From: a virus
Lineage: Duplodnaviria; Heunggongvirae; Uroviricota; Caudoviricetes
Direction: 5' to 3' (one strand)
Virus record (IMG/VR): IMGVR_UViG_2698536480_000003
DNA length: 16,051 nt
This document shows, one piece after another, positions 4,837 to 12,598 of this stretch (position 1 is its first letter; the number at the start of each line of letters is the position of its first letter). Position numbers and translations under genes: made by a program. The notes below the pieces were generated by a model. The model did no database searches, was not told the origin of the DNA, and was given only the letters and a program-made list of their open reading frames with translations.

Positions 4837-5115
4837 GATTGTGGTGCTTTTTGTGGGAGTCATCCACTTACGCACTTTGTTTTGCCATGCCAGCAGTTAG
4901 CTTCTGCTGTAAAACTATTCATGCAGCAAACCTGCACTTCACCACAATGGTTAGCATACTTTTCCTGATTAAGATTTTGCCAAATATGCTAGCCATTGTT
5001 TCATGTATTGGACCTCCTTACTTTTTATTAAAGAGATCCAATATTCACTACTCTGTCCGTATCTCTACTCAGGCATCAGCCTTCTTCGTTATCGTATACA
5101 GACGAGCGATGAATT

Positions 5116-5331
5116 TTAATCAGTAATGATGACATTTGCTGCTGCAGGACCTTTAGCACCACTCTCTATAGAGAAGGTAACCTTTTGACCTTCAAATAAG
5201 GTTCGATAATTATCATTCTGAATCGCAGAAAAATGCACAAACACATCTTTACTACCATCAACAGGAGAAATAAAGCCGAAACCTTTATCAGCGTTAAACC
5301 ATTTTACTAAACCAGTCATTTTATTTGACAT
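5116..5331 (-). CDS. cspB: Cold-shock protein CspB (CspA family), 71 aa
   Basis: [71 protein letters not shown]; long leader upstream with cold-box-like and GCCGAAAGGC elements. Confidence 0.95.
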
Positions 5332-5631
5332 TCTACATTCCTTAACTTGAGCCTTTCGGCATAAATGGTTTGCATAACAGAAACGACTTCGTACTTAATT
5401 GGAGAGACTCAAAGAAGGAATAAGTGAATAACACCTGAAATGAGAACTGCTTTAGTAAACTACTTCGTATATCGTCTGTTCTTCAAACCGACGCAATCAT
5501 TAACGCATAGTTGAACATATGAAGCAATGTTTATTTTAGACATCCAGCCATCTTCAACCCCATCAAAAAACTATAGCTTTCTTCAGGAACGTGTGTATAG
5601 TGCGCCAAGTTATCAGTATTAAGGAATTTTT

Positions 5632-6265: not shown

Positions 6266-7018
6266 TTATCTCGTCACCTTCCTCAATTGCGCTTCCGCGT
6301 ATGCTTCTTCCTGCCAGCACTTTGTTACCAGTTTACCAATGACGTCCGCATACCCCTTATACCACTGATAATCGGTCAGGTCTGGTACCAGCTTCTGGAC
6401 ATGACGTCGTGCCAGCGTGGTCGGTAAACGACTAAACCGGTTTCCATTACAACGCCCACAAATCTTATATACCGGTACGCCATGAAACCGGGTTCTTTTT
6501 TCATCCAGAACAATCCCTTTACCCTTACACCCTCTGCACGCTGTGCTGGCTTCGCCCTTACCATGGCAATGCTGACATAGTTCCTTCACCCATTCTTCCT
6601 TGATTACAGATTCCCCGCGTCTGTAGTGTTTCACCACTTCGCGCAATACATTATAAAATCCCGTACCTGAACAATGCTCACAGCGAGCCTTACTTGCCGC
6701 AGACCTGGAGTAATCAGCAAAGGCAAAACTCACGAGGTAAGGAATAATCTGTAACCGGATTTCTTCACTCAATTTGTTCAATGTCGGGTTATCCAGTGCC
6801 ATCGCGTAATTTAGCAGGCCTTCAATCGCAAACTGAGGGTCCTGAACACCAACTTTTGCCAGAAATAAGGCCAACCCAAGTGGTGCTTTCGACTGCACCA
6901 TCCCCTGCGCTGCCATTACATCCGTAATTGTTAAACAACCGGTGCCTGTCGCTGGAGCGTCATCGCTCAATTTTGGAGATTTTGGGGAGTAATATTTTGG
7001 TAAGGCTTCAAGGTTCAT
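6266..7018 (-). CDS. quuQ: Late-gene antiterminator Q (zinc-binding, multiple CxxC motifs), 250 aa
   Basis: MNLEALPKYYSPKSPKL... with CEHCSGTG, CQHCHGKG, CRGCKGKG and CGRCNG motifs. ATG at 7018 is preceded by GGAG; the longer track ORF (7048) starts at TTG and overlaps ydfU. Confidence 0.85.
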   Translation of the reverse strand: MNLEALPKYYSPKSPKLSDDAPATGTGCLTITDVMAAQGMVQSKAPLGLALFLAKVGVQDPQFAIEGLLNYAMALDNPTLNKLSEEIRLQIIPYLVSFAFADYSRSAASKARCEHCSGTGFYNVLREVVKHYRRGESVIKEEWVKELCQHCHGKGEASTACRGCKGKGIVLDEKRTRFHGVPVYKICGRCNGNRFSRLPTTLARRHVQKLVPDLTDYQWYKGYADVIGKLVTKCWQEEAYAEAQLRKVTR

Positions 7019-7031
7019 GCTCGTTCTCCAC

Positions 7032-8081
7032 TTACGCCAGTACGCCAATTGCCAGCGCGCGATCGATAAAACGAAATATCAGCTCCAGTTGAGAGCCATA
7101 CTTATCTTCAAATGCCACTGTATCCGTATGCAGCTCGTTGTGATGCTTTCTGCACAAAGGCAACACAAAGAGATCATGTGCTTTTGTTCCCATTCCGCCC
7201 TGCCCGTGACCAATCAGATGATGCGGATCGTCGGCTGGCATACCGCAGCAAGCACACGGCTGTGTCTTAACCCAACGTGTGTATTTCTCCTTAACCCAGC
7301 GGCGACGTTTAGGCAGCTTCATGAAAGATTCCGGAGACTCTGGATCAACGGTGATGCTTACCACCGTCTTTTCCTGTGGTGATTTTTGTTGCTGGTGGGC
7401 GTAAGGCAACGGTGCAAGATTTTTTGTGCGTTGTTTCAATATGCTGGTGGCGGTCTGCTCTCCCGGTACGATGTCGCTTTCGCGGTACACCGAGCAGATT
7501 TTTTCCGCTGGTAATCCCAGCGAACGACGCGATACAGCCTCAGGTAGTGCATCCACCACCTGATTGCAGACCGCCCACCAGGATAATTCAGCCAAAGATA
7601 ATTCCCGCTCCTGCGTACCGCTTATTGCGTGACGGATGACGTCAATCACCCATGCTGTCAGATTTTGTTGAGCAAGCAGCTCCAGTGATTCCGATGTCTG
7701 GTCACGCAGTTGGTTGTCGCAGTGCCAGCACAACACCATTGCGCCGGTACCATAACGGTGAATGACTGTTTCAGTGTGATGGTAATCGCCATTAGGCCAC
7801 TGGCAGGATGTAACATGACGTAATAGCCAGTCGGACAATGCGCCAACGCCGCCAGCAGCACGAATCACCCGTTCGTTACTAAAAAACGGCAGCAATGTTT
7901 TGTCTTCCGCCAGCGGCTGGCGAACGGCAGGAACGACTCCGGATGGCAGATTACGCATGCTTTTTGGTTCCGGTTCCACCAGCACTCGAGGATTATGAAA
8001 TATCTGTATGGATTCACGGCCCGGCTTAAGGACCACCAGCCCAAGCTCAGGCACCAGAACAGGTCTAAGTAATACCCGCAC
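7032..8081 (-). CDS. ydfU: DUF968-family protein with Cys/His (HNH-like) motif, 349 aa
   Basis: C-terminal CACCGMPADDPHHLIGHGQGGMGTKAHDLFVLPLCRKHHNELH; preferred start is GTG at 8081 with GGAGG 4 nt upstream (the track start at 8120 is also GTG and has no Shine-Dalgarno). Confidence 0.75.
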   Translation of the reverse strand: MRVLLRPVLVPELGLVVLKPGRESIQIFHNPRVLVEPEPKSMRNLPSGVVPAVRQPLAEDKTLLPFFSNERVIRAAGGVGALSDWLLRHVTSCQWPNGDYHHTETVIHRYGTGAMVLCWHCDNQLRDQTSESLELLAQQNLTAWVIDVIRHAISGTQERELSLAELSWWAVCNQVVDALPEAVSRRSLGLPAEKICSVYRESDIVPGEQTATSILKQRTKNLAPLPYAHQQQKSPQEKTVVSITVDPESPESFMKLPKRRRWVKEKYTRWVKTQPCACCGMPADDPHHLIGHGQGGMGTKAHDLFVLPLCRKHHNELHTDTVAFEDKYGSQLELIFRFIDRALAIGVLA

Positions 8082-8082
8082 G

Positions 8083-8361
8083 TTACCTCCAGATCCGTTG
8101 CTGGAAAGTGCGGGACGCACGTGGTGGGCGTTCGGAATAAGGCAGCCTGACAGAGATTATCCAGTGCCGATAGTCGAGACTGAGAGCTTTCTTAACCTCG
8201 AACCCGCGCCTGCGGTAAGAATGAATCAGCCATTCGGCCTGTTCTGCAGTGCATGGAGGGTGCTGGAACCATTCAGACTTGAATGCGTGAGAATACCGCC
8301 CGTGCGTGCAGGCAAGAACGGGCGAATTATCAGAATTGTAATATTTTGCGTTGCGTGCCAT
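8083..8361 (-). CDS. Hypothetical 92-aa Cys/His-containing protein whose stop is one nt from the ydfU start (translational coupling)
   Basis: ATG at 8361 with GGAG 8 nt upstream; stop TAA 8085..8083, then ydfU GTG at 8081. Sequence MARNAKYYNSDNSPVLACTHGRYSHAFKSEWFQHPPCTAEQAEW... Family not recognised. Confidence 0.5.
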   Translation of the reverse strand: MARNAKYYNSDNSPVLACTHGRYSHAFKSEWFQHPPCTAEQAEWLIHSYRRRGFEVKKALSLDYRHWIISVRLPYSERPPRASRTFQQRIWR

Positions 8362-8427
8362 CGGTTTTCTCCGGTGGCACGGTGTTACTCAGCGGGAGTT
8401 CAGCCCCGCGCAAGATTGTAGATGAGT

Positions 8428-8679
8428 TTATTCTCCTGAAAAAGCAGAAAAGCCAGCTTTTATTCCGATCTCTTTCAATGCCTGTAATGAAGTGACAAAC
8501 TCACCTTCGCGCAAGATAAATCCGTCCGTGACCCGAGCATCCACAAAATTAATTAACGCAGCCCCATTCTTTCGCAAACACATAATGCGGTAATGACTAA
8601 CAAGATTTCCATTTTCAACGCACACAGCATAGAGGCCATCTTCACAAAAAATTTTACGCAGTTCTTCGATGTTCATCAT
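8428..8679 (-). CDS. rem: Small protein, 83 aa, likely Rem
   Basis: ORF starts MMNIEELRKIFCEDGLYAVCVENGNLVSHYRIMCLRKNGAALINFVDARVT...; AGGA Shine-Dalgarno upstream; length and position (between ydfU and hokD) fit my memory of Qin rem, but the sequence itself is not verified. Confidence 0.5.
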   Translation of the reverse strand: MMNIEELRKIFCEDGLYAVCVENGNLVSHYRIMCLRKNGAALINFVDARVTDGFILREGEFVTSLQALKEIGIKAGFSAFSGE

Positions 8680-8795
8680 CAGAATCCTTCCGGATAATTA
8701 GCTCTCCCCTTTAAGGGACCATCCCTCTTATCCCTGCGCGCTACTTAAGTATTTTTGATTCTATTCCGGCACCGTCCAGAACTTCAAACGCGTTG

Positions 8796-8828
8796 AAAAT
8801 AAAAACAAAAACCCGCCGAAGCGGGTTA
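8796..8828 (-). terminator. Rho-independent terminator downstream of hokD (stem aacccgc/gcgggtt, loop cgaa, then T-run on minus)
   Basis: Hairpin at 8810-8827 preceded on the plus strand by aaaataaaaacaaaa, which is a U-run after the hairpin on the minus transcript. Confidence 0.7.
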
Positions 8829-8895: not shown

Positions 8896-9051
8896 TTACT
8901 CCTCAGGTTCGTAAGCTGTGAAGACAGCGACCTCCGTCTGGCCGGTTCGGATTCGTACCTCGCAGAGGTCTTTCCTCGTTACCAGTGCCGTCACTATGAC
9001 GGTTAAACAGATGACGATCAGGGCGATTAACATCGCCTTTTGCTGCTTCAT
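8896..9051 (-). CDS. hokD: Hok-family type I toxin HokD (RelF), 51 aa
   Basis: Hand translation: MKQQKAMLIALIVICLTVIVTALVTRKDLCEVRIRTGQTEVAVFTAYEPEE*. Absent from the ORF track because it is under 60 aa. Confidence 0.9.
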   Translation of the reverse strand: MKQQKAMLIALIVICLTVIVTALVTRKDLCEVRIRTGQTEVAVFTAYEPEE

Positions 9052-10801: not shown

Positions 10802-12444
10802 CATTACGCGCACCGCCCAGACTGACTCAGCGCGTTTCTGGCATATCCCCGGTAAAACAAGTAACAAACCACCCGAAAATGAACACCAGAAACGCGACTT
10901 AAGAATCTACCCTATGAATGGATATGCACTCAACCGAATCGATCTTGGTTTCAATCTTTTTTATCGGGATCAGGCTTCTTTTTAGGTAACTTCGGGGGCT
11001 TAACTTGCTGATGACTTTGCGTTCGGCGCGTAAGCCAGGGATGGTCAGCTTTAGGTTTAACATAGTATTTTGAGCGTAAATCAATACGGGCATTATCCAC
11101 TCGTTCATGGACACTCTTTTCATCATCCAGTGGTATAGGCTCCGGGCCATCAACATACTTTTCCCAGCCCAGCGCTTTCCCGTCATACAGAACGTTAATT
11201 TCACCGTCAAAGTTCTCGCATACAGTAACAACCGAATGCCTAAGTCGATATCCCCGGCCCTCACTGCGTACCTGAAACGCACTGCTTTTGTACTGGAAAG
11301 TGAGATTTTTAGACAGAACGCGCTTCGCCTGTAGGCTGAAGATATAACCCAGTTCCTCTTCAGAATGGTGCACATCAAGATGAGCATTATCAGTAGTACG
11401 AGGCGACGTAGCGAACCGGTTGTTATAGGCTTCAATAAAGGTCGGCAACCATGCATTTGCTGTTTCAATATCACTGATATTCTGAAGCCGCATTTCTTTG
11501 ACCAGCCTGTCCTGTAGTGTCTGATTGGCGCGCTCTACCCGCCCTTTTGCCTGCGGGCTGTTGGCATGGATTGGCTCGATGCCCAGTGTCTTTATCGCAC
11601 GAGTGAACTGGGTCAGCTCACCTTCCCGCTCTGGGTTATTTACCCTGAATATACTGTGTCTATCAGAGTAGAGAGCGAGCGGTACGCCATGATCATTAAG
11701 GTAACCCCGGAGGGTTTCCATGTAAGCCCGGGTTGTTTCAGCAGGCACAAAACGCAACGCCATCAACGCACTGGTGGCATCATCAATGAAAACGATCAGT
11801 GTACATCTGGGGCCTCGATTTTCAAACCAGTCATGAGGTGAGCCATCAATCTGGATCAGTTCACCGTAAGATGGTCGTCGCATGCGGCGTTGATATATAC
11901 GGGCAATTTTACGACGGCGTTCACGCCATAACCCCTCTTCTATCATCCACTTTCTGAGAGTTTCAACGGATAAAGATAAACCGTGTATCTCGCGCAATTT
12001 TTCGCACGCAAACGTAGGTCCAAAATCAGCGTAACGGCCTTTGAGGAGTGAAATTACTGTTGCTCTGAATTCAGTAGAAAAGGAATTATTAGGACGCTTT
12101 CCACGTCGGTGGGAAACCAGACCAGAAGGCCCTTCATTTCTATACCGTTGCACCAGACGTTTAACCTGCCGAATAGAAATGCCAATGCGTGCCGCAGCTT
12201 GTTCCTGAATAATCTGAAGTCGGTGGAGTTCCTTATGACTCATCGTAACAGTCTCTTTGATCATGAAAAATCCCCCAGAGAATTGTCTGGGGACATTTTA
12301 GAATGGTTCAAAGGGGACATTACAGCTTGGTGTTAACAATAGCCTGCTTCTCCGTGCCTTTCGGCACGTAAGAGGCTAACCTACATGTGTCTAGCATGAA
12401 ATTGGCCTCAGATTAATGTTAAGCGTCTTGCAGGACGCGTAATG
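10802..12444 (-). mobile_element. Insertion sequence, about 1.64 kb, carrying a single DDE transposase; ends proposed from imperfect terminal inverted repeats (cattacgcg...)
   Basis: 10802-10826 (cattacgcgcaccgcccagac) versus the reverse complement of 12420-12444 (cattacgcgtcctgcaagac): 9 of 9 at the tip, then partial. No clean target-site duplication found, so the exact boundaries are uncertain. Confidence 0.4.
10951..12264 (-). CDS. DDE transposase with N-terminal helix-turn-helix and rve (integrase-core) domain, 437 aa; IS481/ISNCY(IS1202-group)-like
   Basis: N-terminus ELHRLQIIQEQAAARIGISIRQVKRLVQRYRNEGPSGLVSHRRGKRP; catalytic-core-like IQIDGSPHDW ... FIDDATSA ... ANSPQAKGRVER (D, D, E). 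Exact IS family not determined. Confidence 0.8.
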   Translation of the reverse strand: MIKETVTMSHKELHRLQIIQEQAAARIGISIRQVKRLVQRYRNEGPSGLVSHRRGKRPNNSFSTEFRATVISLLKGRYADFGPTFACEKLREIHGLSLSVETLRKWMIEEGLWRERRRKIARIYQRRMRRPSYGELIQIDGSPHDWFENRGPRCTLIVFIDDATSALMALRFVPAETTRAYMETLRGYLNDHGVPLALYSDRHSIFRVNNPEREGELTQFTRAIKTLGIEPIHANSPQAKGRVERANQTLQDRLVKEMRLQNISDIETANAWLPTFIEAYNNRFATSPRTTDNAHLDVHHSEEELGYIFSLQAKRVLSKNLTFQYKSSAFQVRSEGRGYRLRHSVVTVCENFDGEINVLYDGKALGWEKYVDGPEPIPLDDEKSVHERVDNARIDLRSKYYVKPKADHPWLTRRTQSHQQVKPPKLPKKKPDPDKKD

Positions 12445-12598
12445 TTAACTGGGGCTTTTCTCTATCTGCCGTTGGTGTCCATGCCCGAGGCAGATAGCCT
12501 CAAGCGCCCGCAGTCATTCTACTTAACTAAGATTTCCCCGCAAACCGTTTTTGTCCAGCACAGTAAATATCCAACTAAACCAATGGAGTTCGCTGTAT

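Follow-up and report, generated by a model that had tools for sequence, protein, structure and literature searches.

Is a short open reading frame (ORF) that stops one nucleotide before a nuclease gene, and whose last codons hold the Shine-Dalgarno (SD) sequence of that gene, a dedicated partner of the nuclease, or does it belong to a family of its own that merely shares the operon? The question is raised by a 16,051-nt stretch of viral DNA (IMG/VR record IMGVR_UViG_2698536480_000003, the whole of which is called the window here), which is the Qin cryptic prophage of Escherichia coli K-12; its positions 6900-8700 share 99.9% identity with K-12-derived chromosomes. On the minus strand the annotated gene order is hokD, rem, a 'hypothetical protein', ydfU and ydfT/quuQ, the last of which encodes the antiterminator Q. 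A sequence-only reading of the window had proposed that the 92-aa product of the ORF between rem and ydfU is a Cys/His-bearing companion of the putative nuclease YdfU, and that the two form a recombination or phage-interference pair. Our comparison of sequences identifies the ORF as a genuine protein-coding, conserved small phage gene that has been omitted from the MG1655 reference annotation. Its pairing with ydfU holds only as operon architecture, in a mostly ordinary nin-type arrangement.

The small gene, which is unnamed, occupies positions 8083..8361 (minus strand), running from an ATG at 8361-8359 through 92 codons to a TAA at 8085-8083, as delineated from the ORF list, annotation by the Prokaryotic Genome Annotation Pipeline (PGAP), the match to PHROG 1212 described below and homologues. 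PGAP labels it consistently as 'hypothetical protein' (WP_012304870.1) in K-12-derived assemblies. In the curated MG1655 record (NC_000913.3), rem and ydfU (349 aa) are annotated with no feature in the intervening 346 nt, where the gene would lie at 1644306-1644584. Most E. coli genomes have the gene: the region is matched in 4919 out of 5426 complete genomes, often in several prophages, those of the O157 Stx type included. Among 61 distinct alleles the ratio of nonsynonymous to synonymous divergence (dN/dS) is 0.21 overall, and falls from 0.61 for residues 2-26 to 0.12 for residues 27-72 and 0.075 for residues 73-92; the length variants, of 92, 90 and 89 aa, are all in frame.

All 129 close homologues of the 92-aa protein come from Escherichia or Shigella, and its residues 27-92 match positions 1-66 of the 66-position profile of PHROG 1212 (E=1.7e-35), a family of unknown function. 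When 1.84 billion representative proteins were searched with a profile, 77 relatives were returned, most of which are 66 aa long and begin with a Met aligned to residue 27. With tblastn, members were detected in lambdoid phages and in N15-like ones, from Escherichia, Klebsiella, Salmonella, Citrobacter, Cronobacter, Enterobacter, Erwinia, Pantoea, Hafnia, Edwardsiella and Yersinia. Its members lie in the nin-like early-right region of Qin, O157 prophages, mEp237, Gifsy-2, SPN3UB, phiES15 and Klebsiella and Erwinia phages; in N15-like phages the gene is placed after Q. These results show that the 92-aa protein is the Escherichia form of a family of small, basic 66-aa alpha/beta proteins, PHROG 1212, and that this family is restricted to Enterobacterales phages of the lambdoid and N15-like kinds. 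The earlier remark that it could be assigned to no known family is thus right for Pfam, NCBIfam and PADLOC and wrong for PHROG: Pfam gave no match to the small protein, and PADLOC gave none above noise for either it or YdfU. Scans of viral contigs added little, as the degenerate family-wide pattern contained no stretch conserved enough for a search, the scan with one member (P0163) gave no matches and that with another (P0150) recovered the Escherichia type only. Two database records of the gene deserve mention. In phage vB_EcoS-689R5 (L243, 2501-2779) GenBank names the product of the 92-aa gene 'toxin to Rem', for which no support was found in the literature searched. A 22.9-kb contig (L005) of a metagenome-assembled genome labelled Veillonella parvula encodes Rem, the small protein, YdfU and Q with 91-99% identity to their counterparts in E. 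coli Qin, and is almost certainly a mis-binned Escherichia contig.

The junction between the two genes is as the sequence-only reading had described it. The small gene ends in TGG AGG TAA, a single C stands at 8082, and the GTG of ydfU at 8081-8079 opens a frame of 349 codons that extends to 7032 (ydfU, 7032..8081, minus strand, delineated from Pfam, PHROG and annotation). The GGAGG that serves as SD sequence of ydfU (8086..8090, minus strand) lies within the Trp91 and Arg92 codons of the small gene. TGG AGG TAA C GTG is kept in all Escherichia alleles, and nearly all family members end in TGGAGG or TGGGGG and a stop (TAA or TGA), followed by a start codon (ATG or GTG) within 1-2 nt or overlapping, regardless of which gene comes next. 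The two genes are therefore a translationally coupled pair by their sequence, with stop and start a few nucleotides apart and the SD inside the upstream ORF, all of it conserved. The preference for the GTG at 8081 is likewise borne out. This start is the one adopted by PGAP and by the current MG1655 record, while an older model of 362 aa (old UniProt) begins at a GTG at 8120 and overlaps the small gene by 38 nt; because the start codon alternates between GTG and ATG in related alleles, and because the N-terminus reads MR(V/A)LL always, both in these alleles and in distant relatives (where the start takes the form of an overlapping ATGA or TGATG), the 349-aa start is favored. The Trp91 codon is retained even where the next gene is 48-84 nt away.

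Is the small gene then YdfU's partner? To examine this we gathered loci from genomes, IMG/VR contigs and annotated phages and classed the downstream gene by Pfam or, for mEp237, Gifsy-2, phiES15, SPN3UB, Klebsiella phi1.3, Chris1 and vB_EhrS_59, by annotation. A DUF968/YdfU gene follows in all Escherichia loci of the 92-aa type and in two loci with 67-68-aa forms (L072 and L074). Elsewhere the same gene, nearly always with the same junction, precedes other proteins: RusA in 58 loci and also in Citrobacter phage Chris1, in which RusA is itself followed by YdfU; NinG/Rap in Gifsy-2, SPN3UB and metagenomic phages; YbcO/DUF1364 in mEp237, phiES15 and a Klebsiella phage; Dcm, and then NinF-NinG, in Erwinia phage vB_EhrS_59; an unassigned 175-aa protein in PY54; and a 'putative exonuclease' in an N15-like phage. 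The small proteins are not most alike where they share a partner, as that of mEp237 (before YbcO) is 67% identical to that of SPN3UB (before NinG) and 48% to that of phiES15 (before YbcO). Nor does the ORF always accompany DUF968 genes, as the sequence-only reading had asked: phage records with a YdfU homologue number 186, vs 59 with the small gene, and most YdfU homologues have no small gene upstream, the gene in that position being a regulator in cdtI, RusA in mEp390 and PdcA in P1. In P1 (L332, 1477-2748) PdcB is a full-length YdfU homologue (26% identity over 91%), and pdcA lies directly upstream; PdcA (66 aa, predicted helical) was considered as a member of the family and rejected (hhalign probability 0.1%). 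Overlaps of 4 to 34 nt are present at every junction in the nin region of lambda; tight coupling is therefore usual there and not a mark of partnership. What was found, a small gene that occurs with RusA, NinG, YbcO and Dcm and a YdfU that occurs without it, is not what a dedicated nuclease/partner pair would show. The small gene has a fixed place in the nin-like region, immediately before the position taken by a DNA-junction or recombination nuclease, and the most parsimonious account is that it is conserved as the 5' border of a slot in which the junction nuclease can be exchanged.

AlphaFold2 predicts residues 1-21 of the small protein to be disordered, with a predicted local distance difference test (pLDDT) score below 50, and predicts a core, at a pLDDT of about 87, that consists of a beta strand (27-33), an alpha helix (39-52), two further strands (55-60 and 67-74) and a less confident C-terminal helix. 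This conserved 66-aa core (residues 27-92; 8086..8283, minus strand) is thus a small basic beta-alpha-beta-beta-alpha domain, with a median isoelectric point of 9.5. The strings of Cys and His that had been quoted as a hint of zinc binding or an HNH motif are present in the sequence, but the would-be ligands vary: C18, H20 and H25 are variable within Escherichia, and across the family position 34 is His, Tyr or Gln and position 37 Cys, Met, Leu, Val or Ile, with no other Cys or His conserved. The conserved positions are instead hydrophobic or structural (F32, Y49, L60, D63, W67, L73, P74 and W91), and the fold-defining residues are kept across genera down to about 30% identity. Because the Cys and His residues are not conserved and the conserved positions are of this kind, the zinc/HNH interpretation of the small protein can be ruled out. 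The C-terminal tail is nearly invariant, [Q][Q/S/N][R/K][I/V/M]W[R/G]-COOH.

The N-terminal extension (residues 1-26; 8284..8361, minus strand), delineated by predicted disorder, by dN/dS and by its absence from the 66-aa relatives, is specific to Escherichia and varies by in-frame indels of 2-3 aa. Residue 27 in Escherichia is a Phe rather than the Met with which the relatives begin. In those relatives the start is coupled to an upstream DUF1367/NinB-like or RdgC gene, with gaps of -4 to +5 nt, and upstream of the 92-aa type stands rem, in 81 loci and at a constant gap of 66 nt. It looks as if the extension is sequence that was recruited to give the gene a new start after a rearrangement. The 67-68-aa forms of L072 and L074 indicate that it is dispensable for having a YdfU-type neighbor.

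For YdfU the earlier suggestion of an HNH-like Cys/His cluster stood up well. The protein matches DUF968 in Pfam (PF06147; E=1.5e-76, 256.6 bits against a cut-off of 27.8) and phrog_96, 'HNH endonuclease' (E=2.8e-171), with weaker Pfam matches at residues of about 270-330 to HNHc_6 (6.8e-6) and RecA_dep_nuc (4e-3). In an alignment of 16 homologues the motif consists of C276, C279, H287, H288, C310, H313/H314 and H318 (7128..7256, minus strand): C276, C279, H287, H288, C310 and H318 are invariant, H314 is nearly so, and relatives of 62-64% identity retain the motif, phage Chris1 having a Cys in place of H313. The pattern CxxC...HH...Cxx[H/C]...H, with the catalytic His and the zinc ligands conserved, aligns residue for residue with the HNH motif of McrA, at a weak E-value of 0.77. 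DUF968/YdfU had already been placed together with DUF1364/YbcO (PDB 3g27) in group 7 of the His-Me-finger superfamily, with YdfU as a named example (PMC5714182), and by its sequence YdfU is indeed a His-Me-finger (HNH) protein of the DUF968 family, in which the motif is intact. Structure prediction was less helpful. The full-length AlphaFold2 model is poor (pLDDT 48, from a shallow alignment of 16 sequences) and leaves the N-terminal 160 residues without an assigned fold, and the top Foldseek matches of this model are HNH proteins that do not reach significance (E>=0.19). An Orf/NinB-like domain has been suggested for Gram-positive DUF968 proteins (PMC4118853), and a search for one in YdfU did not confirm it (hhalign probability 0.4%).

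Rearrangements of ydfU were noted along the way. In E. coli ECMA0423 (L008, 4337-5299) the gene is a mosaic whose N-terminal domain is 86% identical to that of Qin while the DUF968 part is about 41% identical, which implies that a recombination breakpoint separates the domains; in this locus the small gene is frameshifted. Three database entries (P0190, P0196 and P0296) contain internal tandem duplications of 45-270 residues, and four others (P0192-P0195) are fused to Q (607 aa). These duplications and fusions are either real rearrangements or artefacts of assembly or annotation.

The coupled junction is accompanied by RNA features that could bear on how the pair is expressed. Around the start of the small gene, a 36-nt segment is predicted to fold into a hairpin (8354..8381, minus strand) that buries the AUG (8359-8361) and part of the GGAG (8369-8372), with a free energy of -16.4 kcal/mol and a z-score of -5.8; none of 200 shuffled sequences folded as well. 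Across 26 distinct alleles 91% of cells are paired, vs 15-40% with slid partners, and compensatory U-A/C-G exchanges occur at two pairs; 0 of 500 shuffles reached the covariation score. A second predicted hairpin (8075..8114, minus strand) lies at the start of ydfU, where codons 83-87 of the small gene (UCC CGC ACU UUC CAG) can pair with CUGGAGG and GUGCGGG, which contain the SD and the start codon. Its free energy is -13.3 kcal/mol (z-score -1.9, equalled in 9 of 200 shuffles), and across 21 alleles the pairing potential is kept (91% vs 21-51% slid). Synonymous divergence (pS) is lower at the 3' end of the small gene (0.27 in the last 20 codons vs 0.46), consistent with an added constraint at the RNA level. 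A Rho-dependent terminator upstream of ydfU has been described as among the strongest in E. coli, and a supplementary table of the same study indicates that impairment of Rho raises ydfU and not rem (PMC9160355). Given the position of the terminator and the response of ydfU but not rem, termination would fall inside the small gene, and both predicted hairpins are in keeping with the Rho-dependent termination that has been published for the interval from rem to ydfU.

We therefore favor the following account, which as a whole, namely a real, coupled slot gene whose product is an independent small accessory and whose expression is gated by hairpins and Rho, we regard as probable with considerable room for doubt. 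As the family-wide junctions show, the last codons of the small gene (UGG AGG or UGG GGG) double as the ribosome-binding site of whichever nuclease gene lies downstream, be it YdfU/DUF968, RusA, NinG/Rap or YbcO/DUF1364. In Qin, the GGAGG and GUG of ydfU may be held in the hairpin with codons 83-87, and because they would be locked there, YdfU might be made only after ribosomes complete the small gene, which would be coupling in the true sense. In the lysogen, the small gene itself may be poorly translated because its own start would lie in the stronger, covariation-supported hairpin, and poor translation would allow Rho to load and terminate, so that neither ydfU nor Q would be expressed. In lytic growth the cascade would be opened by antitermination or by active translation, and the synthesis of YdfU would be tied to the finishing of the small protein. 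The role of such a checkpoint would be analogous to that of the nin terminators of lambda. As for the protein, it is best supported as a small basic protein of the phage recombination/DNA-processing block, and our best guess is that it is neither metal-binding nor a dedicated subunit, inhibitor or immunity factor of YdfU. More specifically, it is conceivable, if rather doubtful, that it is a nucleic-acid-binding accessory in the processing of recombination or replication intermediates, acting independently of the nuclease type.

Several points weigh against this account. DNA binding is proposed from only two properties, charge and genomic context. YdfU is the next gene in 243 out of 243 locus records with the 92-aa type, a count that includes some contigs fetched under several ids and is not one of independent genomes, and a lineage-specific functional tie between the small protein and YdfU would be compatible with it. 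The covariation of the start hairpin is supportive and not conclusive, because the alleles belong to few related haplotype groups. The z-score of the hairpin at the ydfU start is modest, and it shows no compensatory change, so that covariation is uninformative there. Finally, several other family members allow similar anti-Shine-Dalgarno pairings, which are individually without significance.

How do other explanations of the locus fare? It would be tempting to regard the pair as a dedicated two-component system, in which YdfU has the small protein as a subunit that regulates it, lends it specificity or inhibits it in an immunity-like way, the coupling keeping the two at a fixed ratio and the pair serving recombination or phage interference, as the sequence-only reading had it. 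The conserved coupled junction would suit it, as would the unbroken association with YdfU in the Escherichia records, the overlap of the two distant 67-68-aa relatives with YdfU-like genes, and an order of small gene and then nuclease that resembles antitoxin-toxin operons. We nonetheless consider it unlikely, since the family is coupled to the structurally unrelated RusA, NinG and YbcO, and to Dcm, most YdfU homologues do without it, PdcA of P1 is unrelated, PADLOC recognizes neither protein, the phylogeny of the small protein does not follow the partner, and tight junctions are the rule of the nin region. Still harder to sustain is the simplest alternative, that there is no gene at all and the ORF arose by chance or is the mis-split 5' part of a longer YdfU. 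The gap in the curated MG1655 annotation and the 38-nt overlap of the older ydfU model could be read in this way, and among the best 120 of 1572 YdfU relatives (E <= 1e-5) there is one fusion of 438 aa (P0191). But the small ORF and ydfU are in different frames, the fusion is a singleton in which the junction has been deleted, and the small ORF has an independent 66-aa family with other downstream genes, a dN/dS of 0.1 and a consistent call by PGAP; a start-codon artefact can accordingly be ruled out, the small ORF is separate from YdfU, and we give the idea of a non-gene almost no weight.

Another alternative keeps the RNA and drops the protein: the ORF would be a regulatory leader, a translated spacer that gates Rho polarity and feeds ribosomes to ydfU and Q, with a peptide of little or no function. 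The start-occluding hairpin with its covariation, the embedding of the SD and start of ydfU in the 3' end of the ORF, the Rho terminator between rem and ydfU, the reduced synonymous divergence in the last 20 codons and the near neutrality of the first 26 residues (dN/dS 0.61) could all be expected of a leader. A peptide without function would hardly be under the strong purifying selection seen on residues 27-92 (dN/dS about 0.1), nor have fold-defining residues conserved across genera and a core that AlphaFold2 models with confidence, nor keep Trp91 even where the next gene lies at a distance of 48-84 nt. This explanation, too, seems improbable to us. One might also speculate that the 66-aa family serves the junction-nuclease slot as a general adaptor, binding DNA branches or a host factor and working with the structurally unrelated RusA, Rap, YbcO and YdfU alike, with the tail perhaps as a docking peptide and the structured, Rho-sensitive leader as an undescribed checkpoint upstream of Q in Qin-type phages. 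We hold this to be a long shot. The tail resembles Qxx[L/M]F, the bacterial sliding-clamp motif, only loosely and weakly, and a place in the core of the domain is more likely for Trp91 than a part in a clamp motif.

Compared with known systems, the small gene most resembles NinE and NinF of lambda, which precede NinG/Rap, in its slot between replication or NinB-type genes and Q. It shares with the small nin ORFs a size class of 56-66 aa and a stop/start that overlaps or abuts the nuclease gene, and the order of ninE before ybcO-rusA in DLP12 (PMC4118853) is a further instance of this layout. In sequence, by contrast, the family has no detectable relationship to NinB, D, E, F, G or H of lambda (hhalign probability <=0.4%, and 0.1-0.4% for NinD, E, F and H), and in 30 of its members no Pfam match to NinE or NinF was found. 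It also coexists with NinF in Erwinia phage vB_EhrS_59, and it lacks the Cys clusters of NinD and NinF. 'Orf QD1' of N15, STM1021.1n of Gifsy-2 and gp51 of mEp237 are the PHROG 1212 family itself, as matches by tblastn or fold indicate. What sets the Escherichia members apart from the others is the 26-residue extension and the structured start, in place of coupling to a DUF1367/NinB-like gene. YdfU, judged by its DUF968 domain and HNH motif, is like the DUF968/DUF1364 nucleases (YbcO and PdcB of P1) and Ref of P1, a likeness drawn from sequence. The arrangement of the two genes is like sequestered-start coupling combined with Rho polarity in untranslated prophage leaders, in that it has a 1-nt gap between stop and start, an SD inside the upstream ORF, a predicted hairpin and a Rho terminator, with the difference that the hairpin at ydfU lacks covariation.

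The new elements here are by-products, namely the two predicted hairpins at the RNA level and the gene missing from MG1655. Adding the latter to the annotation would be a small, concrete correction: a stretch treated as an untranslated leader with a strong Rho terminator is a conserved coding gene with a predicted occluded start. The hairpin/Rho checkpoint is a candidate explanation for the silence of ydfU and of Q, the late-gene activator, in Qin-type prophages. Moreover, with junction nucleases of four kinds as neighbors and no known relative by fold, the small family is a reasonable, if not urgent, target for recombination biochemistry.

Other features of the window surround the pair. Downstream, 13 nt after ydfU, quuQ/ydfT (6266..7018, minus strand) encodes Q, which is recognized by PGAP and by its Pfam Antiterm domain (E=4.2e-54); a zinc-finger region of the DnaJ CXXCXGXG type (Pfam E=1.5e-8) precedes this domain. 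Upstream, the annotation places rem at 8428..8679 (minus strand), 66 nt from the small gene, and hokD at 8896-9051. Between hokD and rem, at 8810-8827 on the minus strand, lies a hairpin resembling an intrinsic terminator, AACCCGCTTCGGCGGGTT followed by a T-run, and a promoter-like site is found ahead of rem at 8787-8758. Because both precede rem, the four genes rem, the small gene, ydfU and Q may form a single unit. An Rfam match to the sok antitoxin (RF01794, 102 bits) was found at 12338-12509 (minus strand), antisense to the ydfA/ydfB region. It is ~3.3 kb from hokD, which itself has no sok match at the gathering score, and it may be a relic of a hok/sok locus. Lastly, cspI and cspB have upstream thermoregulator leaders of the cspA type (2205-2590 and 5100-5492, minus strand), as expected for the cold-shock genes of Qin.

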